Below are positions 7,314-53,997 of a stretch of DNA of 64,000 bases, piece after piece (the stretch's first letter is position 1; each line of letters starts with the position of its first letter). The notes beneath the pieces are model-generated. The model saw only the letters and a list, made by a program, of their open reading frames with translations, made no database searches and was not told the origin of the DNA. The translations under genes and the position numbers were made by a program. The stretch comes from a bacterium (GTDB taxonomy: Bacteria; Patescibacteriota; Minisyncoccia; Minisyncoccales; GBS-2): contig DAIRUS010000001.1 of the NCBI GenBank assembly GCA_036803205.1, positions 20,290 to 84,289 of the forward strand, written 5' to 3'.

Positions 7314-7323
7314 TTTTAGGAGC

Positions 7324-7458
7324 TCAAACTGTTAACCGCCAACGACCTTTCTTTTTTCGACGCAGTAAAACTTTCCTTCCACCAGAAGTAAGCTTTCTTT
7401 TTCTGAAGCCGTGAGTTTTTTTTCTTTTTCTCTTTTTCGGACGATAAGTAATTGACAT
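7324..7458 (-). CDS. rpmH: 50S ribosomal protein L34 (44 aa), absent from the ORF track because it is under 60 aa
   Basis: Manual minus-strand translation gives [44 protein letters not shown], then TGA. This is the canonical L34 sequence and C-terminus, upstream of rnpA. Confidence 0.9.
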
Positions 7459-7491
7459 ATCATCTATTTTACTCCGTCAAAATATTTAAGT

Positions 7492-7500
7492 CAATCCACA
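7492..7500. promoter_or_regulatory. weak DnaA-box-like 9-mer (CAATCCACA, 7/9 to TTATCCACA) in the AT-rich rpmH/dnaA divergent intergenic region
   Basis: Direct sequence match. The region 7459-7604 is AT-rich and lies between rpmH and dnaA. Confidence 0.3.
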
Positions 7501-7604
7501 ATTTTTACCCAGTTTATTAACAAAATTTAGCTTTTTGGCTGTCTTTACTTCTTCTTGACTTTATAATATGATATATAAAGTATTCTTAATTTGGGCTCAC
7601 TCAT

Positions 7605-8960
7605 ATGACCAAAGAAGAACTCTGGCAAGCAGTTTTAGCCCAGATTCAACTAACTATTTCTCCGGCTAATTTTGCTACCTGGTTTAAAGACACGGCAATT
7701 GTTTCCCTTCAAGACGGAGTGGCTTTTATCTCTGTTCCAAATTCTTTCGTTAAAGAATGGCTTGAACAAAAATATAACAAAACTATTTTCAAAATTCTTC
7801 ACAGTTTAGATGAAGGAATTAAAGAGATAAAATACGATTTGGGTAAACCCCGACCAAAAATAATTAAAAAAAGTTTTCCCGTCTTGCCAGAAGAAGGTCA
7901 GTTAGAATTTCCCGAATTTAAAGTTGACAAAGAAACAAATCTTAACCCAAGATATACTTTCGATAATTTTATTGTTGGACCGTGTAATGAATTAGCTCAG
8001 GCTGCCGCCTGGGCTGTCTCCCAAAATCCTGGCCAGATTTACAATCCTCTTTTTATTTACGGTGGAGTTGGCTTAGGAAAAACTCATTTGCTCCAAGCAA
8101 TTGGCAATGAAATAGTTAAAAAATTAAATCAAAGAAAAGTTAGATATGTCCAAACAGAAAAATTTATTTCCAATGTCATTTCAGCCATCCGCAACCACCA
8201 AATCGAACAACTTAAGGCACTATATCAACCGATTGACGTTCTTATTATTGATGATATTCAATTTTTAGCCGGAAAAGAAAAAACTCAAGAAGAGTTTTTT
8301 TATATCTTTAATTCTCTCTATGAAAAAAACAAACAAATCGTTCTTTCTTCCGACCGTTCTCCAAAAGCCATTCCAGCTTTAACCGAAAGGCTAAGGTCTC
8401 GGTTTGAAGGAGGAATGATTGCCGATATTACTTTTCCCGATTTTGAAACCAGGATGGCTATTTTAAAAGCAAAGTGTCAAGAAAGAAAAGGTGAATTTTC
8501 CGATGAAATATTAAATTATATTGCCTCAAATATTCAAAGGAATATTAGAAAATTAGAAGGGGCTTTAAACATTTTACTTGCCCACCGAAAACTTCAAGGA
8601 GATTCGCCCAACCTAGAAACAGCCAAGTCATTACTGAAAGACCTCGTCTTATCTCCAGTAAGAGTTATTAATCCAAAAGAAGTCGTCAGGGCAGTGGCTG
8701 ATTTCTATGATTTAAAGGAAAAAGATCTATTTTCTTCCTCTCGAAAAAAAGAAATTGTCAAACCAAGGCAAATAGCTATGTATCTATTAAGGGAAGAATT
8801 AAAAAACTCTTTCCCTTTTATTGGAAGAAAGTTCGGTGGAAAAGACCACACTACCGCCATTCATGCCTATGAAAAAATCTCCAAAGAAATAGAAAAAAAC
8901 GAAAACCTTCGCGAGGAAATTGCCTTAATTAAACAAAGATTTATTAGTGGAGAAATTTAA
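7605..8960 (+). CDS. dnaA: chromosomal replication initiator protein DnaA
   Basis: AAA+ Walker A GGVGLGKTHLLQAIGNE, Walker B LIIDDIQFL, C-terminal DNA-binding domain. 451 aa. Confidence 0.95.
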   Translation: MTKEELWQAVLAQIQLTISPANFATWFKDTAIVSLQDGVAFISVPNSFVKEWLEQKYNKTIFKILHSLDEGIKEIKYDLGKPRPKIIKKSFPVLPEEGQLEFPEFKVDKETNLNPRYTFDNFIVGPCNELAQAAAWAVSQNPGQIYNPLFIYGGVGLGKTHLLQAIGNEIVKKLNQRKVRYVQTEKFISNVISAIRNHQIEQLKALYQPIDVLIIDDIQFLAGKEKTQEEFFYIFNSLYEKNKQIVLSSDRSPKAIPALTERLRSRFEGGMIADITFPDFETRMAILKAKCQERKGEFSDEILNYIASNIQRNIRKLEGALNILLAHRKLQGDSPNLETAKSLLKDLVLSPVRVINPKEVVRAVADFYDLKEKDLFSSSRKKEIVKPRQIAMYLLREELKNSFPFIGRKFGGKDHTTAIHAYEKISKEIEKNENLREEIALIKQRFISGEI

Positions 8961-9010
8961 AAAAAACAGTGGAAAAAAAGGGTAAAAATATTGGCCGCAA
9001 ATTTCCTAAC

Positions 9011-9043
9011 TTATCAACACTTAATTTCCTTAATTTATCCACA
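9011..9043. promoter_or_regulatory. two DnaA boxes in the dnaA-dnaN intergenic region, candidate oriC element
   Basis: TTATCAACA at 9011-9019 and perfect consensus TTATCCACA at 9035-9043, in the same orientation, within the AT-rich spacer 8961-9108. Confidence 0.7.
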
Positions 9044-9108
9044 CTTTTGTTGGTGTTAAAACAACGTATTTCTCTTAATTTTGTCAAAAACAACAACAAT
9101 TAAACTAT

Positions 9109-10233
9109 ATGAAATTAACAATTCTAAAAGATGTAATGAAAAAAGGTATAGAGGTTGTCGAAAAAATAACTCAAAAAAATCTTACGCTACCTATTCTTCA
9201 AACAACCATTTTTCAAACAGAAAAAAATTTTTTAACTCTCTCATCTACTAATTTAGAAACAGGAGTTATTTGGTGGGGTTTAGCCAGGATAGAAAAAGAA
9301 GGAAAAATTTGTCTACCAACCAAAGTTTTATCTCAACTTATTAGTTTTGTACCGCAAAAATCTATCTCTTTATTTAAAGAAAACTTATCTCTCTGGGTTG
9401 AATGCGAAAATTATAAAACCGAGATTATCGGATTAGACGCGGAAGAATTTCCAATTATTCCAAAAATTCAAACTGAAAATTCCATTTTGGTTGATACCTC
9501 TCTTTTTTGTCAATCTCTTTCTCAAGTTGTTAAAATTCCTTCTCCTTCTACTGCTCGACCGGAAATTTCCGGAGTTCTTTTGAATTTTCAAGAAAATATA
9601 ATCAAAATTGCCGCCACTGATAGTTTCCGTTTAGCCGAGAAAAAATTGTTTTTACCAAACCCTTTTCCTCAAAAACACTCTTTGATTTTACCCCAGAATT
9701 CAGTTAGAGAAATAATTGGCATTTTTGGAGAGTTGGAAGGAGAAATGCGAATTTATATTTCTCCAAAACAAATATGGTTTGAGTCTCTAATGTCGGAAAT
9801 TTCCCACCCTCAAATTCAGTATACTTCTCGTTTGATTGAAGGGGAATATCCAAATTACGAAGAAATTACTCCTAAAAAATTTGGAACCACTGTTTCTCTC
9901 TCAAAAGAGAAATTATTGAACCAGATTAAAACCGCCAGTCTTTTCAGTGGTAAAAACAATGAAATCATAATGAAAATTGACCCAAAAAATGAAACGATAA
10001 CAATCTTAAGTCAAAGTCCTAATTTAGGAAAATACGAAGGTTCTCTTGCCGGAAAGATTAAAGGAGAAAAAGTAGAAATTGCTTTTAACCACCGTTTTTT
10101 AATAGATGGAATTTTAGAAATAAAAAGTCCGGAATTAACCCTTAATCTAACTAATGAAGAAGGTCCAGCCGTTTTAAGACCAGTTGATCTGGAAGATTAT
10201 TTCTATATTCTAATGCCGATTAAAACTATTTAA
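9109..10233 (+). CDS. dnaN: DNA polymerase III beta sliding clamp
   Basis: 374 aa with three-domain clamp architecture, immediately downstream of dnaA. N-terminus MKLTILKDVMKKGIEVVEKI is typical of DnaN. Confidence 0.85.
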   Translation: MKLTILKDVMKKGIEVVEKITQKNLTLPILQTTIFQTEKNFLTLSSTNLETGVIWWGLARIEKEGKICLPTKVLSQLISFVPQKSISLFKENLSLWVECENYKTEIIGLDAEEFPIIPKIQTENSILVDTSLFCQSLSQVVKIPSPSTARPEISGVLLNFQENIIKIAATDSFRLAEKKLFLPNPFPQKHSLILPQNSVREIIGIFGELEGEMRIYISPKQIWFESLMSEISHPQIQYTSRLIEGEYPNYEEITPKKFGTTVSLSKEKLLNQIKTASLFSGKNNEIIMKIDPKNETITILSQSPNLGKYEGSLAGKIKGEKVEIAFNHRFLIDGILEIKSPELTLNLTNEEGPAVLRPVDLEDYFYILMPIKTI

Positions 10234-28135: not shown

Positions 28136-28218
28136 TCTTGAATAGTTAAAGAAGCTTCATATTAAAGGCGTAAAACAGCGAAAAAGATGAAGTGTTTTAG
28201 GGATACGCCTTGATGACT

Positions 28219-29109
28219 ATGCCAGAATTACCAGAGGTTGAAACTACTGTTTTAGATTTAAAGGCAAAGATCCTGAAGAGGACCTTTGTTGACGTTTGGA
28301 CGGATTCAAAAAATTTAATTAAAAAACCAGAAAGCTTTGAGAAATTTAAAAAAGAAATTAAAGGAAAAAAAATTAAAAACATTTGGCGCCGGGGAAAGAA
28401 TATTATTTTTGAGTTGAGACAAACCGGAGTGAGACCAAAACTTTTTTTATTAATCCACCAAAAAATGACCGGGCATTTGCTTTTGGGAAAATGGAAATTA
28501 GAAAGAGAGAGATGGCAGGCAAAAAATCCCGGCCCCTTGGCTGAAGATCCGATGAATAGATTTTTGCATCTGATATTTTGGTTAAACGATGGTCAAATGC
28601 TAGCTCTTTCTGATTTAAGGAAATTTGCCAAAGCAGAATTATTAGATGAAAAAGATTTAGAAAAGGAACTAAGTGCTTTGGGTCCAGAACCTTTGGAAAA
28701 AGATTTTACTTTTGAAAAATTTAGAAAGTGTTTGGCTAAAAAAAAGAAAGGAAAAATAAAACAAGTTTTAATGGATCAAAAAGTTATTGCTGGAATCGGC
28801 AATATTTATTCTGATGAAATTTTATGGGAGGCAAGGGTGCATCCCTTTAAAGAGATTAGACAATTGGACAAAGAGGAAATGAAGAAAATTTATCAGGCGA
28901 CAAAAAAAATCTTACTAAAAGCAGTTGAGTTAGGTGGCGAATCAATTTCTGATTACCGAAAACCTTCCGGAGAAAAAGGAGGTTTTGATCCTTTAAGAAA
29001 GGTTTATCGTCGAGAAGGTGAAAAATGTTCTCTCTGTGGAGTTATTATTAAAAGAACAAAACTAGCCGGGAGATCAGCTCATTTTTGTCCCCAGTGCCAA
29101 AAACTATGA
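28219..29109 (+). CDS. mutM: formamidopyrimidine-DNA glycosylase (Fpg/MutM)
   Basis: N-terminus MPELPEVETT (catalytic Pro2/Glu3). H2TH domain. C-terminal zinc finger CSLCG...CPQCQK. Start placed at MPELPEV. Confidence 0.85.
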   Translation: MPELPEVETTVLDLKAKILKRTFVDVWTDSKNLIKKPESFEKFKKEIKGKKIKNIWRRGKNIIFELRQTGVRPKLFLLIHQKMTGHLLLGKWKLERERWQAKNPGPLAEDPMNRFLHLIFWLNDGQMLALSDLRKFAKAELLDEKDLEKELSALGPEPLEKDFTFEKFRKCLAKKKKGKIKQVLMDQKVIAGIGNIYSDEILWEARVHPFKEIRQLDKEEMKKIYQATKKILLKAVELGGESISDYRKPSGEKGGFDPLRKVYRREGEKCSLCGVIIKRTKLAGRSAHFCPQCQKL

Positions 29110-41631: not shown

Positions 41632-42063
41632 ATGGAGAAATATGAAATTTTAGAACATAGGGCAGATCTAAAAATCAGGATTTTTGGTAAAACCAAAAAA
41701 GAATTATTTCAGAATGCCCTTTTAGGAATGAGTGAAAGTATGAAGGCCGAAATTGAAAGCCCGGCAGAAAAAGTAAAAAGAAAAGTTAGAATAGAATCGT
41801 TTGATTTGCCTTCTTTATTGGTTGATTTTTTAAGCGAGATTCTTTATTTGAGTCAGGTTAATAAAGAGGTCTATTTTGAGGTGAAGTTTAAAAAATTTTT
41901 TGTTCCGTTAACAAGCTCAAGACAGGCTGAAATAGAGTGTGAACTAATCGGTCAAAAAGTAGAGAGATTCGGCAAAGACATAAAGGCGGTGACTTATCAC
42001 GATTTGGACATTCGTCAGAGAAAAAATAAAACCTGGCAGGCAACAGTGCTTTTTGATATATAA
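41632..42063 (+). CDS. archease (RtcB activator)
   Basis: YEILEHRADLKIRIFGKTKKELFQNALLGM matches the archease N-terminus (consensus recalled: [30 protein letters not shown]). 143 aa, upstream of rtcB. Confidence 0.75.
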   Translation: MEKYEILEHRADLKIRIFGKTKKELFQNALLGMSESMKAEIESPAEKVKRKVRIESFDLPSLLVDFLSEILYLSQVNKEVYFEVKFKKFFVPLTSSRQAEIECELIGQKVERFGKDIKAVTYHDLDIRQRKNKTWQATVLFDI

Positions 42064-42192
42064 GTTGGTTTTTAGGTTTAATTTTTTCAATCTCTATTGA
42101 TTTGACTTTCCCACAGGAATACCACAAGATTTTTTAATTGGGCTAGATAAGAAAGCCTTTTCTTTTTAGAAAACTTAAGCTAAAATGGGAAT

Positions 42193-43641
42193 ATGATTTC
42201 AAAAAAAGATTTTAGAAAAATTTCAGAGTTTCTTTGGGAAATTCCAAAAACTTTTAGGGCAAATATGCGAGTTCCGGCAAGAATTTATGTTTCTGAAAAG
42301 ATGTTAGAAGAAGTATTTCGAGATCAATCGATTCCTCAATTAATCAATGGCACCACCCTTCCGGGAATAGTAAAATATGGCATTGCCATGCCTGACTGCC
42401 ATGAAGGATATAGTGTGCCTATCGGATTTGTTGGGGCATTAAGAGTTTCTGACGGAATTATTTCTCCTGGAGCAGCAGGGTTTGATTTGAATTGTGGAAT
42501 GAAACTTTTAAAATCGGAATTATCAGAAAAAGATATAAAGCCATATTTAGAGAAGCTGGCAACAGAAATTCAGAAAGAAGTACCTTCGGGACTTGGCCGA
42601 GGAGGACAAATAAAACTTTCTTTTGAGGAGATTAATAAAATTTTAGAGGGCGGAGCTCAAAAGATGGTCCAACAAGGTTTTGGCGAGAAAGAAGATATAG
42701 AAAATTGTGAATCTCATGGAAGATTAAACTGGGCCGACGCCTCAACTGTTTCTTCGCGAGCTAAAAATCGAGGAAGGGACCAGTTGGGAACCTTGGGAAG
42801 CGGAAATCATTTCCTCGAAATTCAAAAGGTGGCTGAGGTTTTTGATGAGAAAACAGCCGAAGCTTTTGGATTGTTTAAAGACCAAATTGTAACGATGATT
42901 CATACCGGTTCGCGCGGGCTCGGACATCAGGTTTGTACTGATTATTTAAGGGAATTTATTCCGGTAATGGAAAAAAAGTATAAAATCAATGTTCCTGATA
43001 GAGAATTTGCCTGTGTACCATTCAATTCGCCAGAGGGTCGAAGGTATTTTTCAGCTATGGCCTCGGCCGCCAATTATGCCTGGGCTAATCGCCAAATGAT
43101 CGCCCACTTTATTAGAAAAGCCTGGAAGTCAGTTTTGGGTGAGAAAGACAGTTATTTGGTGGCTCTTTATGATGTTGCTCACAATATTATTAAAAAGGAA
43201 AAATATATTATTGATGGTAAAGAAATTGAAGTGATTGTTCATCGTAAAGGATCCACCCGGGCTTTTCCTCCGGGCCACCCGGAAATCCCTGAAAGATATC
43301 GAAATGTCGGTCAACCAGTTTTAATTCCCGGCTCAATGGGAACTGCCTCTTACGTTCTAGTTGGAACCAGAGAAGGAGAGGAAGCTTTTTTCTCGACTTG
43401 TCATGGCGGAGGTCGGACAATGTCTCGACACGAAGCCATGAGACGAGTTTCTGGAAAAGAAGTAGTAAAAAGTTTAGAATCAAAAGGAATTATTGTTAAG
43501 TGCCGGTCTTTGAGGGGTATTGCCGAAGAGGCGCCCCTAGCATATAAAAACATTGATGAGGTAGTAGAGATAGTCCATAATGCTGGTCTATCAAAAAAAG
43601 TAGCAAAATTGATGCCATTGGCAGTAATTAAGGGAGAATAA
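42193..43641 (+). CDS. rtcB: RNA-splicing ligase RtcB
   Basis: RtcB motifs DLNCGM, GSGNHF, HRKGSTRA, plus C-terminal His/Cys metal ligands. 482 aa. Confidence 0.85.
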   Translation: MISKKDFRKISEFLWEIPKTFRANMRVPARIYVSEKMLEEVFRDQSIPQLINGTTLPGIVKYGIAMPDCHEGYSVPIGFVGALRVSDGIISPGAAGFDLNCGMKLLKSELSEKDIKPYLEKLATEIQKEVPSGLGRGGQIKLSFEEINKILEGGAQKMVQQGFGEKEDIENCESHGRLNWADASTVSSRAKNRGRDQLGTLGSGNHFLEIQKVAEVFDEKTAEAFGLFKDQIVTMIHTGSRGLGHQVCTDYLREFIPVMEKKYKINVPDREFACVPFNSPEGRRYFSAMASAANYAWANRQMIAHFIRKAWKSVLGEKDSYLVALYDVAHNIIKKEKYIIDGKEIEVIVHRKGSTRAFPPGHPEIPERYRNVGQPVLIPGSMGTASYVLVGTREGEEAFFSTCHGGGRTMSRHEAMRRVSGKEVVKSLESKGIIVKCRSLRGIAEEAPLAYKNIDEVVEIVHNAGLSKKVAKLMPLAVIKGE

Positions 43642-43860
43642 ATGGACTAAAAATTAAGGTCCAAAATGGAAAATTATAGTTTAAAATTTAAAAACTTTGA
43701 AAACCTAACAACCCCTTTTTTTCTATGGAAAGACATCGTTTGCCAAGGTCAATCAGAAAGTTTATTCGAGAGGAAAAGGCGAGAATTCGGCGAGAAGTTT
43801 TAGATTTGCAACAACAAGAAAAATTAATCACTCAGCTTTATCAAAAATTTTTCAATCAAT

Positions 43861-44808
43861 ATGCGAATAAGAGAAATATTCAATCTGGCGATTCAAAAGG
43901 GGATTGAGGCCGATTTTCGGGGGAAAAAGACCATTGAAGAGATTTTGGTCAGAAAAAGAGAAAAATATCAAAAACTTTCTGAAAAAGAAAAAGATTATTT
44001 TGACAAAGAGGCATTAAAAAATCCCTATTTAGATTCAAGGATTTTAAACATCGCTCAAGAGAAAGAAGTTAAAAAAGTTTTGGTTGGCATTGATATTGAA
44101 CCAGCCGAAATTTTAATGGCAAAAGAAATTGGCGGAATTGATTTAGTTATTTCTCATCACCCCTTAGGAAAAGGTTTAGCTAATTTACATGAAGTAATGG
44201 AGCTGCAGTGCGATATTTTGAATTTATATGGCCTGCCAATTAATGTAGCGGAAAAATTGATGAAAGAAAAAATTTCTGAAGTGGCAAGAGGAATAAACAG
44301 AGTGAACCATCAGAGAACAGTTGATGCGGCAAAAATTTTAGGATTAAATTTAATGTGTCTCCACACTGTCACCGACAATTTAGCCGCCAAATTTTTAAAA
44401 GCAAAAGTAGAGAAGGAAAATAGTTTAATGAGATTAGAAGATTTATTGGATCTTTTGAAAGAAATCCCGGAATACAAAGAAGCGGCAAAAATTGGAGCTG
44501 GCCCAAAAATTTTCGTTGGCGACAAAGAAGCAAGATGTGGCAAAATTGCGGTTACTGAAATTACTGGTGGAACCGAGGGCTCACCAAAGATTTATGAAAA
44601 AATGGCCATTGCTGGAATTGGAACCGTCATTGGAATGCATATGGAAGAAGAGCATAAAAAAGAAGCCGAAATAGCTAACATTAACGTTGTCATTGCTGGT
44701 CACATGAGTTCGGATTCTTTGGGAATGAATCTTTTTTTGGATGAATTAGAAAAGAGGGGAATTGAAATTATACCCTGCTCGGGATTAATTAGAGTCCAAC
44801 GGTTTTGA
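43861..44808 (+). CDS. Nif3/YqfO-family dinuclear-metal-centre protein
   Basis: VLVGIDIEPAEILMAKEIGGIDLVISHHPL (NIF3 HHP motif) and C-terminal IAGHMSSDSLG (GHY.SE-like). Confidence 0.55.
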   Translation: MRIREIFNLAIQKGIEADFRGKKTIEEILVRKREKYQKLSEKEKDYFDKEALKNPYLDSRILNIAQEKEVKKVLVGIDIEPAEILMAKEIGGIDLVISHHPLGKGLANLHEVMELQCDILNLYGLPINVAEKLMKEKISEVARGINRVNHQRTVDAAKILGLNLMCLHTVTDNLAAKFLKAKVEKENSLMRLEDLLDLLKEIPEYKEAAKIGAGPKIFVGDKEARCGKIAVTEITGGTEGSPKIYEKMAIAGIGTVIGMHMEEEHKKEAEIANINVVIAGHMSSDSLGMNLFLDELEKRGIEIIPCSGLIRVQRF

Positions 44809-44896
44809 TTTTCCTTAATTTTTCTGGCAAAGCAATAAATTGAGATTTTTACAAAATTAATTGGCCCAAAAGCCAGTTTTTTGATAAAATTAAAGT

Positions 44897-46039
44897 ATGC
44901 GCACAGGGATTGCCACGATTCCGTTAGATTATGGCCGTTGTCCGCGATGGCTTTTTGAGAGAATGAAGAGATTGAGTCGAAGTATTGTCATAGCTATTGT
45001 TGAAGAATTTGGGGTTGAAGAATTTTTAAAGCGTCTTTCCGATCCCATATGGTTTCAGAGTTTTGGATGCGTCCTTGGTTTTGACTGGAATAGCAGCGGT
45101 CTGGGGGTTACTACCCTAGGTGCCCTAAAAGTGGGGCTTTTTGATCTCCAAGACCGGTTGGGAATTTATGTTTGCGGTGGCAAAAGAGAATCGAGAAAGA
45201 CGCCGGAAGAGATTATTGCTTACGGAATATCGCGGGGTTTTGATTTTGCCAACAATTTAGTTTATGCCTCAAAAATGGCAGCGAAGGTTGATTCAGCTTT
45301 AATTCAGGATAATTATTCTCTTTATCATCATAATTTTATTTTTACCAAAGATGGCAAGTGGATTGTAATTCAGCAGGGAATGAATTTGGAGAACCAAACT
45401 GCCCGACGTTACCATTGGCTTTCTTCAAGTTTAAGGAGTTTTACTGAAGAACCTCACTCTGGGATTATTTCTGGCTCAAAATTAAGATTAAAACCTTTAA
45501 ATTTGGTTGCCAAAGAAAGCAAGGAAAATAAAGAAATTTCGACCGAATTAGTTAGAGAGGAGCCAAAAACATTTTTACGCGATATTAAATTAATTTCAGA
45601 AAAATCAAATACCTTAATTAAACAAAGAAGATTTGAAAATTTTGCCGAAATAGAATTAAAAAATGTTGAATTTCGTCACCATCCAGTTGAAAAAGAGAAA
45701 TTTGATTTAAGAAGATTAGAAAAAACCATTTTTGTTGCCCACGGAGAAAAACCAGAAAACTTTGAGAAGCTTTTATCTTTAAAAGGAGTAGGACCAAAAA
45801 CCATTCGAGCCCTTTCTTTAGTTAGCGAATTAATCTATGGTGCTCCACCATCTTATGAGGACCCAGCTCGTTATTCTTTCGCCGTGGGTGGGAAAGACCA
45901 TACGCCAATGCCAATTCAACGAGATGTTTATGACCAACTATTATCTATAATGGAAAAAGGAATTAAAAAAGCAAAAATTTTTCACCGAGAAAAAATAGAA
46001 GCCCAAAGGAGATTATATGGTTTGGTTAAAAATAACTAA
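44897..46039 (+). CDS. uncharacterised conserved protein (DUF763-like), with an HhH-like segment
   Basis: N-terminus ...CPRWLFERMKRLSRSIV... recalled as DUF763-like (from memory). KGVGPKTIRAL HhH. Assignment uncertain. Confidence 0.3.
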   Translation: MRTGIATIPLDYGRCPRWLFERMKRLSRSIVIAIVEEFGVEEFLKRLSDPIWFQSFGCVLGFDWNSSGLGVTTLGALKVGLFDLQDRLGIYVCGGKRESRKTPEEIIAYGISRGFDFANNLVYASKMAAKVDSALIQDNYSLYHHNFIFTKDGKWIVIQQGMNLENQTARRYHWLSSSLRSFTEEPHSGIISGSKLRLKPLNLVAKESKENKEISTELVREEPKTFLRDIKLISEKSNTLIKQRRFENFAEIELKNVEFRHHPVEKEKFDLRRLEKTIFVAHGEKPENFEKLLSLKGVGPKTIRALSLVSELIYGAPPSYEDPARYSFAVGGKDHTPMPIQRDVYDQLLSIMEKGIKKAKIFHREKIEAQRRLYGLVKNN

Positions 46040-46108
46040 TTAAAAGGTTGCAAAAATTGTTCCATTGAGTGAAAAGCCAGAAAAAATATTTTAAAGACAG
46101 AAAAAAAT

Positions 46109-46309
46109 ATGAGCAAAGAAACTCCTAAAAGAAGTCAGATTGAAATACGGAAAAAAAGAAAGAGGAAAGAAAAAATCAAAAAATTGAAGGAAAAATATTT
46201 AGTAGCTCAAACCCAAGAGGAAAAACAAAAAATAATTGAAAAAATTCTAAAAATCGCGCCTCATTATCCAATTGCGGAAATTTTGAAGTTTAATGAATCT
46301 AAAAAGTAA
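46109..46309 (+). CDS. small lysine-rich hypothetical protein (66 aa)
   Basis: ORF only. Overlaps the downstream gene start by 17 nt. Low-complexity basic sequence. Confidence 0.25.
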   Translation: MSKETPKRSQIEIRKKRKRKEKIKKLKEKYLVAQTQEEKQKIIEKILKIAPHYPIAEILKFNESKK

Positions 46310-47141
46310 GGAATTTTTGAATTTTTTTTTCATCGAAGCATTTTTATTTTCCTTAACCTTAATTGCGGGGGTTTTTTCAGCAAAAAGAATTCAAAAATTT
46401 TCTTCTTCACAAGAAATTGAGATACCTCCCGTTTCTCTTTTGTATTTTATTTTAAGCTTTGCTATTGCCACTCTCTTTATTTTTTTGCTTGTTAAATTTT
46501 TAAAGAGAAAATTACTAAAAGGAAAAATTTATAAAACCCTTTTTCTTTTCACTGTTTTTTTGAGCGGATTAACTTTTTTTGAAATTTGGTTTGGCGAACC
46601 TTTAGCTCTCTTTTTAATTTCTCTTTTAATTTTTTGGTGGGTTAAAAAACCAAATGTTTTGAATCAAGACCTTTTGATGGTTTTCGGAATAGCCGGCATT
46701 TCAAGCATTTTAGGATTGGGACTAAAACCAGAGCCAATAGTCTTTATTTTAATTTTATTTTCAATTTATGATTTTGTTGCTGTTTATAAAACGAAACATA
46801 TGGTAGAAATGGCAAAGGAAATGATAGAACAAAAAACAATTTTTGGGTTTGTCATTCCTCAAGATATTTTTTCTTTTAGAGAAAGCTTATTAAATGTTCA
46901 ACCTGGAGGTAAATTTCTTGTTCTAGGAGGAGGAGACGTTGCCCTTCCTCTTTTATTTTCGGTTTCCCTTTTGCCGAGCGGATTCTTAAATTCAATCATT
47001 GTTGCCGCCTTTTCTCTCCTCGGCCTTTTTATCAGTTTCTACATTTTTACCCATCAAAAAGTTCGCCGACCTATCCCCGCTCTTCCCCCAATTGCCTTTT
47101 TTTCAATTATTGGTTTTTTGCTCATAAGAATTTTGTGGTAA
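46293..47141 (+). CDS. presenilin / signal-peptide-peptidase-like GxGD intramembrane aspartyl protease
   Basis: Polytopic protein with motifs in order YD (FSIYDFVAVY), GxGD (LVLGGGDVALPLL), PAL (RPIPALPPIAFF), at spacings matching archaeal presenilin homologs. Confidence 0.6.
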   Translation: MNLKSKEFLNFFFIEAFLFSLTLIAGVFSAKRIQKFSSSQEIEIPPVSLLYFILSFAIATLFIFLLVKFLKRKLLKGKIYKTLFLFTVFLSGLTFFEIWFGEPLALFLISLLIFWWVKKPNVLNQDLLMVFGIAGISSILGLGLKPEPIVFILILFSIYDFVAVYKTKHMVEMAKEMIEQKTIFGFVIPQDIFSFRESLLNVQPGGKFLVLGGGDVALPLLFSVSLLPSGFLNSIIVAAFSLLGLFISFYIFTHQKVRRPIPALPPIAFFSIIGFLLIRILW

Positions 47142-47156
47142 ACTGAAATAATTTCA

Positions 47157-47516
47157 ATGTTGGATAAAAATAAAAAATATCTCCAGATTGCCTTAAATAG
47201 CACTCTTGAGGAGGTAAGAGCAGTTATTAATCAAATTCCCTTAGATGAAAGAATTATTATTGAAACAGGTCTCCCCTGATTAAAGCTCACGGCTCGATGG
47301 AAATTAGGCAAAGAATCAGAAATTCCTTTTCACGAGATTGCCAGGATTAAAAATGAATGCGATATTATGGTAGCTATTGCCGGTGGAGATACCATTCAAG
47401 AAGTTCAACAGGCAACTTTTAATGATACCGACATCGTCGTTTCCTGGAAATCTTTTTACCAAAGGACAACTGAAACCATCCAATTAACCGAGGAGTTTTT
47501 GAAAGAAATTAGATAA
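47157..47516 (+). pseudogene. 3-hexulose-6-phosphate synthase / OMP-decarboxylase-family pseudogene (in-frame TGA plus large internal deletion)
   Basis: N-terminus YLQIALNSTLEEVRAVINQIPLDERIIIETGLP*LK matches HPS LQLALD...VDIVEIGTPVIK. In-frame TGA at 47277-47279. C-terminus IARIKNECDIMVAIAGGDTIQEV...TDIVV matches the HPS C-terminal barrel strands. About 110 aa of the middle is missing. Confidence 0.6.
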
Positions 47517-47559
47517 GAGTAAATTGGAACCTTTTAATAATTCTTTTTTCTTTCAACAA

Positions 47560-48260
47560 TTAAAGATTTTATCCCCTCCAAGATTTCTACCGGCAAAGCA
47601 AAAACTATGGTCTTTGATGGGTCAGTTGAAGTTTGTCAATTGTCTGTAAAGTTCTCAAAGATAATCCACCAGGAATTACTCCTAAAATTTCAGCTGCTTT
47701 TTAAAGATTTTCAGATGCTTTCAGTTCTCCTTCTCATTTAATAATTAAGACCCTTCTTTCTCTTTCAGTTTCTGCCTGAGCAGCCATTGTTCTTTTCATT
47801 GCTGCTGGTAACTTAATGTCTTGCATTTTTATTGCCGTAACATCAATTCCCCAGGGATCAGTTTCTGTATCTACCACTTTTTTGATTTCGCTGGCAATTC
47901 TTTCTCTTTCCGTAAGCAAAGTATCAAGCTCTACTCCACCGACAATGTCTCGCATTGCTGCCAAAGCATATTGCGAGGTGGCATAAGAATAATTCTCAAT
48001 TTTTAAAATAGCATCCTCTGCCCTTATTACTCGAAAATAAACGACTGCATTTATTCCTAATGGAATATTGTCTTTTGTAATGGCCTCTTGGCGAGGAATG
48101 TCAACCGTAGTGATTCTCATGTCAACTTTTATCATTCTTTGAATGCCGGGAAAAATCTAACGGAGTCCGGAAGAACAGTTCTGCTATATTTGCCTAAAGT
48201 TAAAACCACTCCTCTTTCCTATTCATTCACTATCCGTAATCCTCGTAACCAAAAAACTAC
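47560..48260 (-). pseudogene. SPFH/band-7 (stomatin/HflK-like) pseudogene with nonsense codons and frameshifts
   Basis: The ORF at 47734-48135 encodes only the band-7 core (VDMRITTVDIPRQEAITKDNIPLGINAVVYFRV...). Homology continues upstream in another frame (ERGVVLTLGKYSRTVLPDSVRFFPAFKE, across a TAG). Downstream it continues through TGA and TAA (LIIK*EGELKASENL*KAAEILGVIPGGLSLRTLQT), then in a shifted frame (SKTIVFALPVEIL). No TM anchor is present. Confidence 0.7.
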
Positions 48261-48325
48261 CAAAAAAACTAAAAAATATACAAGAATCTTCCCCATTAAT
48301 TTATTAAATTTAAACCAATTTTAGA

Positions 48326-48353
48326 TTGCCAACCTTTTGATCATTTGTATAAT
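48326..48353 (+). promoter_or_regulatory. sigma70-like promoter upstream of the UDG gene
   Basis: -35 TTGCCA (48326-48331), 16-nt spacer, -10 TATAAT (48348-48353), 11 nt before the ATG at 48365. Confidence 0.4.
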
Positions 48354-48364
48354 ACTAACAAAAT

Positions 48365-48919
48365 ATGCTAAAAAAAGAAGCGTTAGAAAAATTAAATCAA
48401 AAAATTAGAAGTTGCCGAAAATGTCTTTTATGGAGAAAAAGAAAAAATGTTGTCCCGGGAGAAGGATCTGTTGATGGGAAATTAATGTTGATAGCTCAGG
48501 CGCCAGGTATTGAGGAAGATAAATTAGGCGGTCCCTTTGTGGGGCGAGCCGGCAAACTTTTAAATCATTTGTTAAAATTAACCGGCATTAAAAGAGAAAA
48601 AGTTTTTATTACTTCTTGTTTAAAATGTCTTCCCCAACCACCGATAAATAGAAAGCCCAAAAAAGAAGAAATTGAAAACTGCTTGCCTTATTTAAAAAAA
48701 CAAATTGAAATCATCAATCCCAAAAGATTTATTTTATTAGGCGAGGTTGCTTTTTCGGTATTTTTCCCAAATAAAAAGTTAAAAGATTTTCGAGGAAGAT
48801 GGATTAAAAAAGAGGACAAAGAATTTTTTGTTACCTACCATCCGGCGGCTGGTCTTCGCTTTCCGAAAATCAAAAAAATTTTGGAAAAAGATTTTAGAAA
48901 ATTTGTTTCTGGCCATTAA
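48365..48919 (+). CDS. uracil-DNA glycosylase, family 4
   Basis: SCRKCLLWRKRKNVVPGEGSVDGKLMLIAQAPGIEEDKLGGPFVGRAGKLL, the family-4 UDG signature (GEGP/GE.PG..ED..G.PF.G.AG). Confidence 0.8.
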   Translation: MLKKEALEKLNQKIRSCRKCLLWRKRKNVVPGEGSVDGKLMLIAQAPGIEEDKLGGPFVGRAGKLLNHLLKLTGIKREKVFITSCLKCLPQPPINRKPKKEEIENCLPYLKKQIEIINPKRFILLGEVAFSVFFPNKKLKDFRGRWIKKEDKEFFVTYHPAAGLRFPKIKKILEKDFRKFVSGH

Positions 48920-48989
48920 AATTCATTCATTTCTAAAAAAAGACCATCAACACAAGTTCTCAATCCTCTTTTTGTCGTCCAAGAACCAC

Positions 48990-49790
48990 AAAGCCCTATT
49001 CCGCCTTTAGTTAAAAAACTTAAGGCAAAATAAACTCTTTCTTTTGGCAAAAAAATTTTTTCAATTCCAATTGTTTTTTTCAATCATTTCTTTCGGCCCA
49101 CAATTTAAAATAAAATCACCTTCTTTTTTATTTCCTTTCCCAAAAATTTTAGCCCCAAAACTTTATTTATTTTTTCGTCGGCCCCTCTCTTTCTTTTTTT
49201 AAAATAGGCAAAATCCAAATTTCCTAAAAGTTTAGCCAAAGCCCCTCCTTTAGCTAAAGAACCTTTATCAGGAGCTATTACCTGCCAATCTTTTTTATTT
49301 TTAATGATTTTTTTATTGCCATTGAAAAAGGAAAATAAGCCTCAACCTCTATAAGCTTTATTCCGACTTTTTTGTAAAAATTTTTGATGTCTTTGCTATG
49401 GAGGTCGCAGGTAGTTACTTTTTTTGGTGTCAACTGCGGCCAATAATTTTACCAAAAGTTTTTCCGAGATTGGCTCTTTTTTTTCTGGAGTTGTTTTTTT
49501 ATTTTGTCTTGAGGAGGGTAAAGAAGGAAAAATTAAAATAATTTCTTTTACCCCATTTTCTCTAATGGCTTCGATAATTAAAAGAGTTTCTAAAATTGTT
49601 TTATTGGGATTTGGAGTGGTAGTTTGATAAACAAAAATTTTTTCTGGCTAACATTTTCCAAAAGTTGAACGTAAATTTTCCCACAGGCAAATTTTTTGAT
49701 GATAATTTTGCCAAATTTTAAATTTGCCAATTTAGCTAATTTTTCAGCACTCTTTTTATCAGCGCTCCCAGAAAATAAAATTTTTTCCAT
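48990..49790 (-). pseudogene. prs: ribose-phosphate pyrophosphokinase (prs) pseudogene, multiple frameshifts
   Basis: Minus-strand translations in three different frames match Prs in order. N-terminus: KILFSGSADKKSAEKLAKLANLKFGKIIIKKFACGKIYVQLLENVSQKKFLFI (residual ORF 49590-49790). Then ETLLIIEAIRENGVKEIILIFPSLPSSRQNKK, then VTTCDLHSKDIKNFY, then IAPDKGSLAKGGALAKLLGNLDFAYFKKRKRGADEKINKVLG. Low-coordinate boundary is approximate. Confidence 0.7.
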
Positions 49791-49793
49791 TTT

Positions 49794-50174
49794 CTAAACT
49801 GCTTTATTTTTGTTAACTAAATTTTCTATTGCCATTATGGCAACCTCACAATCGGTAATTAAAGGAACCCCTTTTTCTACTGCTTTTTGCCGAATTAATT
49901 TGCCATCGTTTATTTCCTTAAGGCTTTCTTTTTTTCTGCTTGGAATGTTAATAATTAAATCAAACACTCTCTTTTTTAAAAGATCAGCAATACCCAATCC
50001 TTTTTTCTTTTCTTTTTCAGACATTTTGTAGACCCGAAGGGCACGAATTCCATGTCTTTTTAAAAATTTATGAGTACCTCTTGTGGCATAGAGGACATAG
50101 TTTTGGTTTTGGGCTAATTTTTTAATTGACGGAAGCAAGAGTTTCTTATTTTCAATTCTTCCAACGGAAAGCAA
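49794..50174 (-). CDS. stand-alone MGS-like domain protein (CarB C-terminal / PurH N-terminal type fold)
   Basis: NYVLYATRGTHKFLKRHGIRALRVYK...DLIINIPSRKK...IRQKAVEKGVPLITD resembles the methylglyoxal-synthase-like domain (from memory). 126 aa, no fused catalytic domain. Confidence 0.4.
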   Translation of the reverse strand: MLSVGRIENKKLLLPSIKKLAQNQNYVLYATRGTHKFLKRHGIRALRVYKMSEKEKKKGLGIADLLKKRVFDLIINIPSRKKESLKEINDGKLIRQKAVEKGVPLITDCEVAIMAIENLVNKNKAV

Positions 50175-50177
50175 AAT

Positions 50178-51329
50178 TTATTTTGGAAAAAGAGAAAATA
50201 TAGCTGCCTTTCCATATCTTTTTTCATCCCAATCTCCAGTTTGTCTATTTAAGAGTGAAAAAATTGCCACCTTTCTTATGTCTTTTTCACCAAAAAGATA
50301 TTGAAGAAAGCGTTCATTACCAATACCATAACCAGCATGAGGGTTGGTTAGTTTGTTTTTGATGACATTGAGATACCATTCAAAATCACTGTATTCTCCA
50401 CCACGCTCCAAATGTAATTTAAACATCGTAGAGGTTAACAACCTTTCCCTAAGCTTTTCAAAGTTACACTCTCTAACTGCTGAACCTACTCCTTCTCCGG
50501 CATAAGGAAAGATTACATCAGCAGACAAAACCACTCGCGGATCTTTTGTCCAAACCTTCATATTAAAGAATTTAATTTCTTTTGGGTACTTCATAATAAA
50601 AACAGGAGACTCTTTTTTAAGAGAAGAGATTTTTTTCCTAATTGAGCCGTTATTTAAGTATTGAACAATCAGTGCCTCATGTTCAGCCTTTAAATCGTCA
50701 CCAAATTTAATCTTTGGATAACCATTTTTGTTTAATATTTTGATTGCCTCTTCGTAAGTGATTCTTAAAAATGGTCTTTCAACAGCTTCTTTTAATTTTT
50801 GAGTATTACGCCTATAAACCTTTTCTAGTATTTCTTCATAGTTTTTTAAGATATTTTTTATTGCTGATTTGATAGTAGATTCGATGTGATTTAATAAGGT
50901 TTCATACATTTTGTCTTCATCATATTTTTCCCTATTCATTCCAGCCAAGGTGCAATCAAATTCTTCTTCTGTTAGAAGAAATTGTTTTAAATGACGCTTG
51001 TCCTCTTTTTCTTCGTCTCTGCCAGAATGAATGACCGTCCAAACGCCGGGGAAAGATTGAAGCGCTTGTTCAAGATATAGTTGACCAGTTTGGGCAAAAA
51101 AAAGAGGTAAAGAAAGGCGATTATAAATTCTAAATAAAGTATCGATGTTCTCGCAGGCTCCTGTTATACCAACAATAACTGGTACATCAACGTAGGTTAA
51201 GCTTCTTTTTTGAAATTCAAAAAAACAGCCTTCTTTGAAGGCTTGGCTAATTTTTACTAAGTTGGCGAAATGTTTTTTAAACTCGATGTTAATTTCTTTA
51301 TTTTCGACGTTAAGATTAACTTGTGACAT
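50178..51329 (-). CDS. class IIb aminoacyl-tRNA-synthetase-like catalytic core without an anticodon-binding domain (archaeal-type AsnA asparagine-synthetase-like)
   Basis: Motif-2 region FAQTGQLYLEQALQSFPGVWTVIHSGRDEEKEDKRHLKQFLLTEEEF (compare SPQLYKQ...ERVFEI..FRNE...RHL.EF.MLE). Motif 3 HAGYGIGNERFLQYLFG. No N-terminal OB-fold domain. Confidence 0.45.
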   Translation of the reverse strand: MSQVNLNVENKEINIEFKKHFANLVKISQAFKEGCFFEFQKRSLTYVDVPVIVGITGACENIDTLFRIYNRLSLPLFFAQTGQLYLEQALQSFPGVWTVIHSGRDEEKEDKRHLKQFLLTEEEFDCTLAGMNREKYDEDKMYETLLNHIESTIKSAIKNILKNYEEILEKVYRRNTQKLKEAVERPFLRITYEEAIKILNKNGYPKIKFGDDLKAEHEALIVQYLNNGSIRKKISSLKKESPVFIMKYPKEIKFFNMKVWTKDPRVVLSADVIFPYAGEGVGSAVRECNFEKLRERLLTSTMFKLHLERGGEYSDFEWYLNVIKNKLTNPHAGYGIGNERFLQYLFGEKDIRKVAIFSLLNRQTGDWDEKRYGKAAIFSLFPK

Positions 51330-51508
51330 AGGAGCTAAAAATTTCTCCCCTTTGGGAGTAACAGACCTTTAATATAAGTTTTAGATTTTTCCAGCATAAA
51401 AAAAACTGCCCCTTGGGCAATTTTCTGACTTTCGGGTGCGACTTTTTCTTTTTTTGACACATTTTTAAAAATTTTACTCATCCAAGAATTTTTGTCAAGA
51501 GAAGTAAT

Positions 51509-53128
51509 TCACAGTCTTTTTGTCATGTAAGTATTTTTAAGTTTGTATCCCAATTTTCTAAAATATTCTCTTGCCCCGGTACTAGAAATTGCTACCATTT
51601 TTTTTAAGCCAAATTCTTTTTTAGTGATTTTTTCTGCTTCTTTGATTAATTTTTTTCCCAGACCCTGATGTTGGGGAGCGATTTTTTTGACTCCGATTGG
51701 CACTGACTGGCCAAAAGTTTTAATTTCTCGGATTATTGCCGACTCTTTTAATATCGGCAGAACCGATAAAAGCCGGGTTTCTCTTGAAACAAAAGAGGGG
51801 AGGCGAAGACGGATGAGGCTATAAAGCTTTGTTCTATTTTTATTTTCAAAACTGAGAAAAATTTCCTTTCCGCCAGAAGCCTCATAATCCAGGCGGAAAA
51901 AAGACAGCCTTTCTTTTGGGTCATAATTTTCTTTTACTTCTCGACACCTGATGCATTTACATTGCCATTTTTCTTTTTTTATCTCTTTAGCCAAAATTTG
52001 TCGGATGTTAGAAATTTTTGCTCCACCAGCAATGATTTTTTGAGATGGGATATCTCTAGCAATTCTTTGGATTCTGACATAATAAGGAATTTTCTTTTTG
52101 ATTTTTTTTATAAGCTTGAATAAAGTTTTTTTAGAATAAGGCTTATATTTCCCAGTTTGCCACCACTGATAGAGCGGCGCTTCTTTTAATAAAGCGCAGG
52201 GATAGATTTTTAAATAATCTGGCTGAAAATCAGGATTTTGAAATAATTCCTCAAACATTTTTTCATCTTTTTTTACATTGGAGCCCGGCAAATTCGGCAT
52301 TATTTGATACAAAACCTTAAAACCGGCATCTTTTAAAAATTTGGTTGCCAAAATTGTTTCTTTTACGCCGTGTCCTCGTAAATTTAATTTTAAAACATCA
52401 TCATAAATCGACTGAACCCCCAATTCAACCATAGTTATTCCTAATTTCCTCAACCATAAAATTTCTTTTTCGTTTATAAAATCAGGCCTAGTTTCAATAG
52501 ATAATCCAACAATTCTATGCCTTGCCTTTTCATTTAATTTTTGCGCCCTCTCTAATTCCTGTAAAACAAATGCCATGGCATTTATTTTACAGTTGGATGG
52601 ATTTTTGTTGTTGCAGGCTTGGAAACACCTTTTAATAAACCAGGCTTGATATTTTTTGGGATAATAACTCCAGGTTCCACCGACTATTCTCAATTCAATT
52701 TTATCAGTGGGATGTCCTTCATTTTCTAGCGTTTCAATTCTTTTTTTCACTTGTAGATAAGGGTCGTAATTTAATCTTTTTGCCCTTTCGACGGCTGGCT
52801 CTCCAGAAAGATAGCTTTTGGGAATACCTTTTTCAATTGGACAATAAAGACATTTGCCAGGACAGAGATAGGGCTTGGTTAAAACCGAGACATTAACAAT
52901 TCCAGAAAGAGAACGAATTGGTCGCGTTTTAAGTAACCTTTCAATTCTTTCAGATTTTTTAATTCTTTTCTTTCTGAGTAATTTCTGATAAACTCTTAAT
53001 AGCTCGATATTGCTTGGGCAAGAGATTTTATATTTTTTTGTTACTTCTCTCTTTAAAAAATCCAAATCAACCTCATTTTTTATTCGGCTTTTAATTAATT
53101 CGCTGATTACAAGTTCATTAACATTCAT
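51509..53128 (-). CDS. elp3: Elp3-type radical-SAM/GNAT protein (tRNA wobble-uridine carboxymethyl modification enzyme homolog)
   Basis: Radical-SAM cysteine cluster LCPGKCLYCP. Elp3-like core. C-terminal GNAT motif QHQGLGKKLIKEAEKI. 539 aa. Confidence 0.75.
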   Translation of the reverse strand: MNVNELVISELIKSRIKNEVDLDFLKREVTKKYKISCPSNIELLRVYQKLLRKKRIKKSERIERLLKTRPIRSLSGIVNVSVLTKPYLCPGKCLYCPIEKGIPKSYLSGEPAVERAKRLNYDPYLQVKKRIETLENEGHPTDKIELRIVGGTWSYYPKKYQAWFIKRCFQACNNKNPSNCKINAMAFVLQELERAQKLNEKARHRIVGLSIETRPDFINEKEILWLRKLGITMVELGVQSIYDDVLKLNLRGHGVKETILATKFLKDAGFKVLYQIMPNLPGSNVKKDEKMFEELFQNPDFQPDYLKIYPCALLKEAPLYQWWQTGKYKPYSKKTLFKLIKKIKKKIPYYVRIQRIARDIPSQKIIAGGAKISNIRQILAKEIKKEKWQCKCIRCREVKENYDPKERLSFFRLDYEASGGKEIFLSFENKNRTKLYSLIRLRLPSFVSRETRLLSVLPILKESAIIREIKTFGQSVPIGVKKIAPQHQGLGKKLIKEAEKITKKEFGLKKMVAISSTGAREYFRKLGYKLKNTYMTKRL

Positions 53129-53822: not shown

Positions 53823-53894
53823 GTCCCTATAGCTTAATGGATAAAGCACAACCCTCCGGAGGTTGGGATCTCCGTTCGAGTCGGAGTAGGGACA
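53823..53894 (+). tRNA. tRNA-Arg (anticodon CCG)
   Basis: Cloverleaf: acceptor GTCCCTA/TAGGGAC. D-arm GCTT-AATGGATA-AAGC. Anticodon stem CAACC/GGTTG with loop CTCCGGA (CCG). T-arm CTCCG-TTCGAGT-CGGAG. Discriminator A. CCA not encoded. Confidence 0.85.
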
Positions 53895-53997
53895 CAAACA
53901 TATAAAATTGAAACTCCAAAAAGATGGTTTTGCCTAATTAAATTTTAGCATTCCTCAGTTAAAGGCTTGACAGGCAATTTTGAAAAATTAAAATAAT

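Follow-up and report, generated by a model that had tools for sequence, protein, structure and literature searches.

Are the interrupted reading frames that flank an intact gene for a family-4 uracil-DNA glycosylase (UDG) on contig DAIRUS010000001.1 (assembly GCA_036803205.1) the traces of genuine gene decay, and if so, what was lost there, by which route, and why? The locus lies in a 64-kb stretch of this contig (positions 20,290 to 84,289; henceforth the window, to whose numbering all coordinates refer), for which an earlier note had reported three degraded genes around UDG and had read them as metabolic reduction in progress. All three, together with the intact UDG, are present where that note had placed them. 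The zone of decay it had delimited at 47157-49790 does not end at 49790, and reaches 50180, where a TAA splits a gene coding for a paralog of asparaginyl-tRNA synthetase (AsnRS) fused to an MGS-like domain (AsnRS-paralog::MGS). The zone thus spans ~3 kb (47157-50180) and comprises four disrupted genes or relics, namely an HPS-like gene (for 3-hexulose-6-phosphate synthase), an SPFH gene, prs, and a pyrD-pyrK fusion, along with the split gene, all around the intact UDG (Table 1). We consider it highly probable that the decay is real and recent, and that it probably continues, in a bacterium of the candidate phyla radiation (CPR), with relaxed selection on a module leading from pentose phosphate via phosphoribosyl diphosphate (PRPP) to uridine monophosphate (UMP) as its best explanation.

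Lesions around an intact UDG gene

Six-frame translation and the list of open reading frames (ORFs) for 47100-49800 recover only fragments, except for the 184-aa UDG. The only long stretches of the window devoid of a large ORF are 47142-48364 and 48920-50177, its remainder being densely packed with full-size genes. By comparison with intact orthologs, chiefly those of L019, the closest relative found (~78% amino-acid identity), we mapped 14 disabling lesions to coordinates across the zone; these include seven single-bp indels, four of which fall inside A5-A7 runs. Five disrupted genes lie within six consecutive genes out of ~66 in the window (P ~3e-5, or ~3e-4 when they are taken as four independent units), a clustering that exceeds chance.

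Table 1. Coordinates of the features in and next to the decay zone.
Feature	Position	Strand	Basis and remarks
HPS-like (OMP-decarboxylase/HUMPS superfamily) pseudogene	47157..47516	+	tblastn with intact orthologs, codon-level comparison
SPFH/Band-7 pseudogene	47534..48296	-	ATG at 48296, stop at 47536-47534; aligned to intact orthologs
Promoter-like site TTGCCA-16-TATAAT upstream of UDG	48326..48353	+	11 of 12 consensus matches; consensus match only
Family-4 uracil-DNA glycosylase, 184 aa	48365..48919	+	Intact; Pfam UDG 6e-32
C-terminal relic of pyrD-pyrK fusion, ~67 aa (dihydroorotate dehydrogenase and electron-transfer subunit)	48916..49120	-	Homology to L019 PyrDK
Junction of ~3.2-kb deletion	49106..49117	-	Window versus L019 nucleotides at both parental sites
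prs (ribose-phosphate diphosphokinase) pseudogene	49105..49790	-	ATG at 49790; aligned to intact L019 Prs
MGS-like domain ORF, 126 aa, TTG start	49794..50174	-	Pfam MGS 3e-17; C-terminal domain of the upstream gene in relatives
In-frame TAA splitting AsnRS-paralog::MGS	50178..50180	-	PK-stop-ILLSVG versus PKHILLSIG
AsnRS-paralog (asparagine-synthetase-A-like, class II aminoacyl-tRNA synthetase core without anticodon domain), 383 aa	50181..51329	-	Pfam tRNA-synt_2 7.6e-31, NCBIfam on L019 ortholog; otherwise intact

The region that the earlier note had assigned to prs as a whole is composite: the at least three frameshifts it had counted are borne out, all of them in A-runs (49643-38, -1; the A7 run 49425-19, +1; the A5 run 49302-298, -1), but 48916-49120 belongs to the relic of a pyrD-pyrK fusion. 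The prs pseudogene is cut after residue 234, ahead of the PRPP-binding loop (DDxVDTG; DDMVDTG in L019), and a complete, one-frame Prs with this C-terminal loop is not present in the window: three frame corrections are needed and the sequence ends at VILF. After repair, its 228 aa score 136.8 bits against TIGR01251 (cut-off 113; profile positions 3-199 of 309) and 9e-25 against Pfam Pribosyltran_N. The pseudogene shows 60% identity to the intact 312-aa Prs of L019 (P0001), and a search of 5.8 billion proteins retrieved no intact Prs above that value. The pyrDK relic is 59% identical to L019 PyrDK over query residues 231-291 (with PyrDK residues 410-522 aligned) and matches the NCBIfam PyrK model with 1.8e-7, what is left of it corresponding to positions 171-231 of the 254 in that model. 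The A7 run 49080-74 brings a +1 frameshift into the relic, two of the four Fe-S cysteines are replaced (C to G and C to W), and the FAD/NAD domains and 4-Cys 2Fe-2S site of a complete PyrK are not found in it.

The two pseudogenes meet at 49117-49106, where the prs frame (…KKVILF) passes directly into the pyrK frame (DFILNCGP…). The junction, GATTTTATTTTA, reads VILF in the former and DFIL in the latter and constitutes a short homology common to both parental sites; the common stretch GATTTTATTT(TA), of ~10-12 nt, resembles both of these sites in L019. Hence, we infer that ~3.2 kb were lost by deletion between short similar sequences. This loss, missed by the earlier note, took prs codons 235-312 as well as pyrE, pyrF, and pyrDK codons 1-454, the last three serving the late steps of de novo pyrimidine synthesis. 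As read from the aligned loci, the pyrK tail and the truncation of prs at residue 234 prove a deletion in the window lineage.

On the other side of UDG, both surviving ends of the HPS-like gene display 79-81% identity (tblastn) to the intact orthologs of L019, L008, and L012. A 1-bp deletion near 47270 produces the TGA at 47277-79, while the true frame runs on as SPLIKAHG up to a deletion junction near 47312, where ~0.41 kb, corresponding to residues ~53-188 of the 255-aa ortholog, is gone. Hence, the degradation and the internal deletion described previously stand, but the in-frame TGA that had been listed is only apparent. At this junction, a search for microhomology recovered at most a few bases common to both sides. 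The intact L019 ortholog scores 99.7 against the HxlA model TIGR03128 (cut-off 200) and 170.9 against its best model, the HPS half of Fae-Hps (cut-off 274). It passes Pfam OMPdecase (57 against a cut-off of 27), and its sequence matches in the PDB are exclusively 3-hexulose-6-phosphate synthases. Because it falls below the HxlA equivalog cut-off, the gene is best termed HPS-like only, as far as such profile scores go.

Tandem pairs of HPS-like paralogs occur in several relatives (L006:2283-3727, L009:7808-9144, and L010:3490-4936). One member of the pair has a GYP motif, with a ~45-aa insertion in L006 and L010 (263 aa) and without it in the 227-aa copy of L009, and the second, at ~218 aa, is short and of the GTP-motif type. 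In the window, as in L019, L008, and L012, there is just one copy, which is long and bears the GTP motif. We considered that the window remnant might join the N-terminus of one tandem paralog to the C-terminus of the other and rejected this, as the best match of either end is the long type found as a single copy in L019, L008, and L012.

The SPFH gene is the most heavily hit of the zone. Four nonsense codons stand where relatives have sense codons (TAG 48221-19, Tyr; TAG 48159-57, Trp; TGA 47736-34, Ser; TAA 47703-01, Gln), and 1-bp deletions lie near 48170 and near 47625. The TGA, TAA, TAG, and at least two frameshifts reported earlier are thereby confirmed, but the accompanying statement that no transmembrane segment is encoded is not, as the N-terminal hydrophobic segment MGKILVYFLVFLVVFWL is kept as in the orthologs; although encoded, the anchor lies apart from the domain. 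An uninterrupted SPFH domain with its anchor is accordingly absent from the window, and the domain is recognized only after repair of the four stops and two shifts in their real frames, whereupon it matches Pfam Band_7 (PF01145) with 2e-33. It is 89% identical to the intact 258-aa ortholog of L019 over the central 183 codons and 84% over the whole repaired alignment, and no intact SPFH protein above 87% identity was found among 5.8 billion proteins. The family is very conserved in Parcubacteria, with the best-scoring 120 clusters listed being 77-87% identical. The six disabling lesions accompany only 18 window-unique versus 11 L019-unique amino-acid changes, a ratio above the neutral-decay expectation by a rough estimate and in small numbers.

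At the far border of the zone, the TAA at 50178-80 replaces a codon that specifies His in most relatives (else Tyr, Gln, Arg, or Thr), thereby splitting a gene that is a single ORF in 24 of 26 CPR relatives. Amidst these broken genes, the 184-aa UDG is an uninterrupted ORF matching TIGR00758 over residues 17-180 with 167.2 bits (cut-off 125.3). It shows the expected Fe-S cluster cysteines (CRKC, SCLKC, ENC) and the HPAAG motif, and is, to judge from these features, a complete family-4 enzyme, consistent with the earlier description of an intact gene with a good promoter, the latter being predicted from consensus matches (Table 1).

Certain variants of UDG in other assemblies merit mention. In L067 (JGI 3300010288, 99.95% identical to the window; L067:11467-11811), the gene combines P108T with a +1 in an A7 run (window 48686 and 48694-48700, respectively), giving a 114-aa product; this comes from one assembly and would mean either that decay has reached the one intact gene of the zone in some of the population, or that this assembly contains a homopolymer error. 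For the copy beside an intact pyr operon in L066 (L066:7850-8326), the gene call gives 158 aa; its alignment to the window UDG covers only residues 1-115 of the latter, and it may be truncated. Further, the window UDG is 72-84% identical to sequences from Thermodesulfobacteria (L005, L007, and L013:10001-10339), i.e., two contigs of metagenome-assembled genomes and the isolate Thermodesulfobacterium hydrogeniphilum DSM 14290, whose match covers residues 67-179 only. Because this identity is as high as that among CPR relatives, it suggests lateral transfer of UDG between CPR and Thermodesulfobacteria.

The locus in relatives and the ancestral gene order

Relatives were collected by a GTDB genome scan with UDG and a metagenome scan with the AsnRS-paralog. 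Those from the former (65-76% amino-acid identity) share the order DUF763, signal-peptide peptidase (SPP), HPS-like (one or two tandem copies), SPFH (opposite strand), UDG, and ELP3 (opposite strand). HPS-like and SPFH genes are intact beside UDG in L006, L008, L009, L010, and L012; in L014 (SPP-UDG-ELP3) and L004 (DUF763-UDG), both are gone without relics. L019, from the latter scan, has the order ELP3, AsnRS-paralog::MGS (one 504-aa ORF), Prs (312 aa), PyrE-like (228), PyrF (299), PyrD::PyrK (522), UDG, SPFH (258), and HPS-like (255), in which all genes are intact and their family assignments confirmed. The HPS-like, SPFH, prs, and pyrDK sequences of the window align to these intact genes in the same order, such that every broken gene has an intact syntenic ortholog in relatives. 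L066 shows pyrC-like, pyrB::pyrI, and OTCase-like (ornithine-transcarbamylase-like) genes, then prs-pyrE-pyrF-pyrDK-UDG-SPP. As this places the operon next to UDG once more, its position there predates the window lineage and is, on gene order, ancestral to the clade. The pyrK relic likewise argues against the L019-type arrangement having been derived by insertion. Since L019 is intact and others cleanly lack one or both flanks of UDG, the window appears, on comparison of these loci, to be an intermediate between the states of L019 and L014. The SPFH and HPS-like genes are always kept or lost as a pair in relatives (both in six loci, neither in three), and in the window they were inactivated by separate mutations, a pattern that hints at a functional link between them.

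To gauge constraint, we counted amino-acid changes unique to the window against those unique to L019 in a three-taxon relative-rate comparison with a two-sided binomial p. The HPS-like gene (15 versus 3, p 0.008) stands out, followed by prs (30 versus 16, p 0.054), while SPFH (18 versus 11), UDG (22 versus 16), ELP3 (42 versus 32), the AsnRS-paralog (26 versus 29), and MGS (10 versus 10) show no significant excess. Of the 13-15 sites that vary among near-identical strains, 6 lie inside the 3-kb zone, which makes up 14-18% of the compared sequence (p ~0.01-0.02). These counts suggest that the HPS-like gene and prs have probably been dead longest, and that the SPFH lesions and the TAA split are likely to be recent.

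Origin of the lesions and cause of the decay

Could the frames be whole after all? Sequencing or assembly errors would be the simplest reason for spurious stops and shifts, and the zone has the right texture for it: four of its seven 1-bp indels lie in A5-A7 runs, every prs and pyrK frameshift sits in an A-run, the typical site of sequencing error, and one strain difference (L001, at 51398), as well as the UDG frameshift of L067, are also changes in A-run length. However, exact-protein look-ups traced the locus to four more assemblies, which derive from four samples (L001-L003 and L067; ENA ERZ27245459 made with MEGAHIT, Logan SRR5214706, ENA ERZ1744544 made with SPAdes, and JGI 3300010288). 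Their identity to the window is 99.93-100%, with collinearity kept throughout the zone, and at the level of the assemblies every lesion is common to all five across the MEGAHIT, SPAdes, Logan, and JGI pipelines. The SPAdes contig name of ERZ1744544 gives 28.7x coverage, and the few single-nucleotide differences among the five assemblies indicate that they do not all stem from the same data. Records of the fragment products exist at NCBI, JGI, ENA, and Logan, and within their clusters at 90% identity nothing longer occurs. Moreover, four nonsense substitutions, the 0.41-kb deletion, and the 3.2-kb deletion with its gene relic cannot be homopolymer errors. This replication, along with the nonsense mutations and deletions, outweighs the concern over A-runs, and the chance that the genes are really intact is very slight. 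Slighter still is that of recoding, which the earlier note had raised as a possible refutation, be it through an alternative code, stop readthrough, or programmed frameshifting. UGA is reassigned in some CPR lineages, but TAG, TGA, and TAA all feature among the lesions and all terminate normal genes of the window (of its 51 large ORFs, 36 end in TAA, 11 in TGA, and four in TAG). The window uses the standard genetic code, frameshifts of both signs occur, and large parts of the HPS-like gene, prs, and pyrDK, together with all of pyrE and pyrF, are physically absent. A more serious contender, if still an unlikely one, is that some fragments persist as functional split genes, either as separate AsnRS-paralog and MGS polypeptides or as a 133-aa SPFH core protein. 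Both halves of AsnRS-paralog::MGS are intact and evolve at the L019 rate, a TTG follows one codon (3 nt) past the TAA, and the split is present in every strain seen. Against this, the gene is one fused ORF in nearly all relatives, inspection of the sequence before the TTG found no Shine-Dalgarno-like element, and the SPFH core ORF is without both membrane anchor and C-terminal region.

The ancestral segment, whose order L019 still shows intact, comprised the HPS-like gene, SPFH, UDG, pyrDK, pyrF, pyrE, prs, AsnRS-paralog::MGS, and ELP3. In the window lineage, a deletion of ~3.2 kb, probably between two short A/T-rich similar sequences, removed pyrE and pyrF and left the first two-thirds of prs joined to the final ~67 codons of pyrK, with the three homopolymer frameshifts of prs gained afterward or already carried. 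The HPS-like gene was disabled by its 1-bp and ~0.41-kb deletions, SPFH by four nonsense mutations and two 1-bp deletions, and AsnRS-paralog::MGS, the first gene of the pyr operon, acquired a stop between its two domains, with UDG kept under its own predicted promoter. The prs side of the zone is one operon and one pathway, from PRPP via orotidine monophosphate to UMP. The ribulose-monophosphate route in reverse supplies pentose phosphate, and by analogy with it, the HPS-like enzyme would have a predicted role as such a supplier. If UMP synthesis was lost or became dispensable, e.g., by acquiring nucleotides from a host or the environment, the supply by prs and the HPS-like gene would be left without a consumer, and these genes would drift under the usual bacterial bias toward deletions and slippage in AT-runs. 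Relaxed selection on the module, followed by neutral decay, would explain most of the zone, SPFH excepted. The earlier inference of localized decay and metabolic reduction in progress, drawn from prs and a pentose enzyme, is strengthened by the additional deletion of pyrE, pyrF, and most of pyrDK, and is upheld by the intact syntenic orthologs, the lesions fixed in five assemblies, and the clean losses in relatives.

Certain observations weigh against this explanation. SPFH carries more lesions than any other gene here, yet nothing obvious connects it to nucleotide metabolism and its amino-acid changes show no significant excess, such that an account in terms of one functional module leaves it unexplained; likewise, neither half of AsnRS-paralog::MGS shows acceleration, so that its split may be very recent or harmless. 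A rival notion is that the flanks of UDG are an unstable, mutation- and deletion-prone region whose genes are lost regardless of function, the nucleotide link being incidental. Every presence/absence combination of the two flanks occurs among the relatives, the unrelated SPFH decays too, strain polymorphisms are ~four-fold denser in the zone, and UDG itself is frameshifted in strain L067. Nevertheless, UDG, the AsnRS-paralog, MGS, and ELP3 lie in or beside the zone without excess amino-acid change, neutral evolution of dead genes predicts denser polymorphism equally well, and the prs-side genes belong to one operon and one pathway. We therefore deem this notion improbable as the full cause, with intrinsic instability around UDG a possible contributor. 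Loss driven by selection, in the form of adaptive inactivation or of economizing by streamlining, as opposed to drift after relaxed constraint, strikes us as improbable to a like degree. The six disabling lesions of SPFH beside its few extra missense changes would fit it, and streamlining has been proposed for groundwater Parcubacteria (PMC11188291). On the other hand, a single lesion inactivates a gene, leaving later ones neutral in any case, and the ~2.5 kb of dead DNA still carried is unlike strong selection for compactness; the numbers are small. Relaxed selection on the pentose phosphate-PRPP-UMP module remains our preferred explanation.

The locus parallels several known cases. In host-dependent bacteria such as Mycobacterium leprae, Rickettsia prowazekii, and Sodalis, biosynthetic genes were inactivated by nonsense mutations, homopolymer frameshifts, and deletions, and the relics lasted for some time before deletion bias erased them; there, pseudogenes are spread chromosome-wide, whereas here decay is confined to ~3 kb of a tightly packed 64 kb. 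The canonical bacterial pyrimidine operon combines pyrB, pyrC, pyrD/K, pyrF, and pyrE, with prs. L019 has a tightly packed prs-pyrE-pyrF-pyrD::pyrK and L066 adds the pyrC-like, pyrB::pyrI, and OTCase-like genes upstream, whereas all that the window retains is the 5' portion of prs, with its frameshifts, and 67 aa from the pyrK end, and the operon of this clade begins with AsnRS-paralog::MGS. CPR bacteria are known for missing nucleotide biosynthesis, with the losses normally deduced from absence. Here, one locus offers the full series: an intact operon in a relative, a half-erased version with datable relics, and clean deletions elsewhere. It gives a concrete route of pathway loss in small genomes, by deletion between short similar A/T-rich sequences, A-run slippage, and nonsense mutations, and, to judge by gene content, at least the late steps of pyrimidine synthesis are probably still open to part of the clade. 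It also cautions that the 40-133-aa ORFs called here in public assemblies are gene fragments. In groundwater Parcubacteria, pseudogenes amount to ~5-10% of genes and were read as genes leaving during streamlining (PMC11188291, Environ Microbiome 2024). Because of that report, we view the locus as a well-resolved new example of a known process, ordinary gene loss caught half-way, and not a new kind of feature. That study concerned the same bacterial group with genome-wide Pseudofinder counts, whereas we follow one locus lesion by lesion, with intact ancestral-type and clean end states. Similarly, gene loss together with lateral transfer has been put forward to account for the patchy metabolism of CPR (PMC7304191, BMC Biol 2020). 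Nucleotide, PRPP, and pentose-phosphate functions are variable in both that study and ours, there as presence/absence on a tree and here with the intermediate seen directly.

A bolder version, which we judge quite improbable, is that the zone is no random patch and records the coordinated collapse of a single supply line, from fructose-6-P via ribulose/ribose-5-P and PRPP to UMP, with AsnRS-paralog::MGS as a conserved member of the CPR pyrimidine cluster. Were this so, the window would be a natural knock-out series tying AsnRS-paralog::MGS, and perhaps the HPS-like/SPFH pair, to pyrimidine synthesis, and AsnRS-paralog::MGS could possibly supply a step for which no gene was seen in the clusters examined, i.e., carbamoyl-phosphate or an equivalent donor.

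AsnRS-paralog::MGS (window 49794-51329; L019:8001-9515; L020-L061), whose MGS-like part resembles the allosteric domain of CarB, lies directly upstream of pyrD/pyrK/pyrE/pyrF; L019 additionally has prs there, and L024 an aspartase-like lyase. None of the clusters examined showed a carbamoyl-phosphate synthase, and a literature search for an AsnA-MGS fusion in pyrimidine metabolism returned nothing relevant. The presence of pyrBI in the same operon slot in L066 had raised the alternative that the fusion replaces PyrB/PyrC. This is ruled out by L030, in which an OTCase-like gene, pyrB, and a pyrC-like gene occur directly upstream of it.

Host genome and further observations

The window (GC ~34%) encodes DnaA, DnaN, YidC, RnpA, a class A penicillin-binding protein (PBP), RuvC, and type-IV-pilin-like proteins, with GreA encoded on the contig just outside it, and the relatives carry the labels Paceibacterota, Patescibacteria, or Parcubacteria. 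By this bacterial gene set, the host is a Parcubacteria-like CPR bacterium. An archaeal (DPANN) origin, prompted by archease, RtcB, DUF763, ELP3, and a presenilin-like SPP, is ruled out by DnaA, DnaN, YidC, RnpA, class A PBP, RuvC, and GreA. Rfam and tRNA scans of the window gave tRNA-Arg (53823-53895) as their sole match, with none in the decay zone, and exact look-ups of the window ORF 28210-29109 and of P0135 returned no record.

The archaea-typical genes form a run on both sides of the zone (41632-47141 and 51509-53128), coding for archease, RtcB, NIF3-like, DUF763, DUF6800, a presenilin-type signal-peptide peptidase, and an ELP3-like radical-SAM/GNAT protein. The A-run at 51398, upstream of the AsnRS-paralog and beside ELP3, differs in length between the window and L001; gene calls put the ELP3 product at 518 aa in L001 and at 539 aa in L067, the latter being also the length of the ORF in the window. 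Finally, the arrangement at 6978-10233 looks like a chromosomal origin region: rnpA-yidC-(KH/R3H protein) occupy the minus strand and are followed by dnaA-dnaN in plus orientation, with a ~290-bp gap at 7314-7604.

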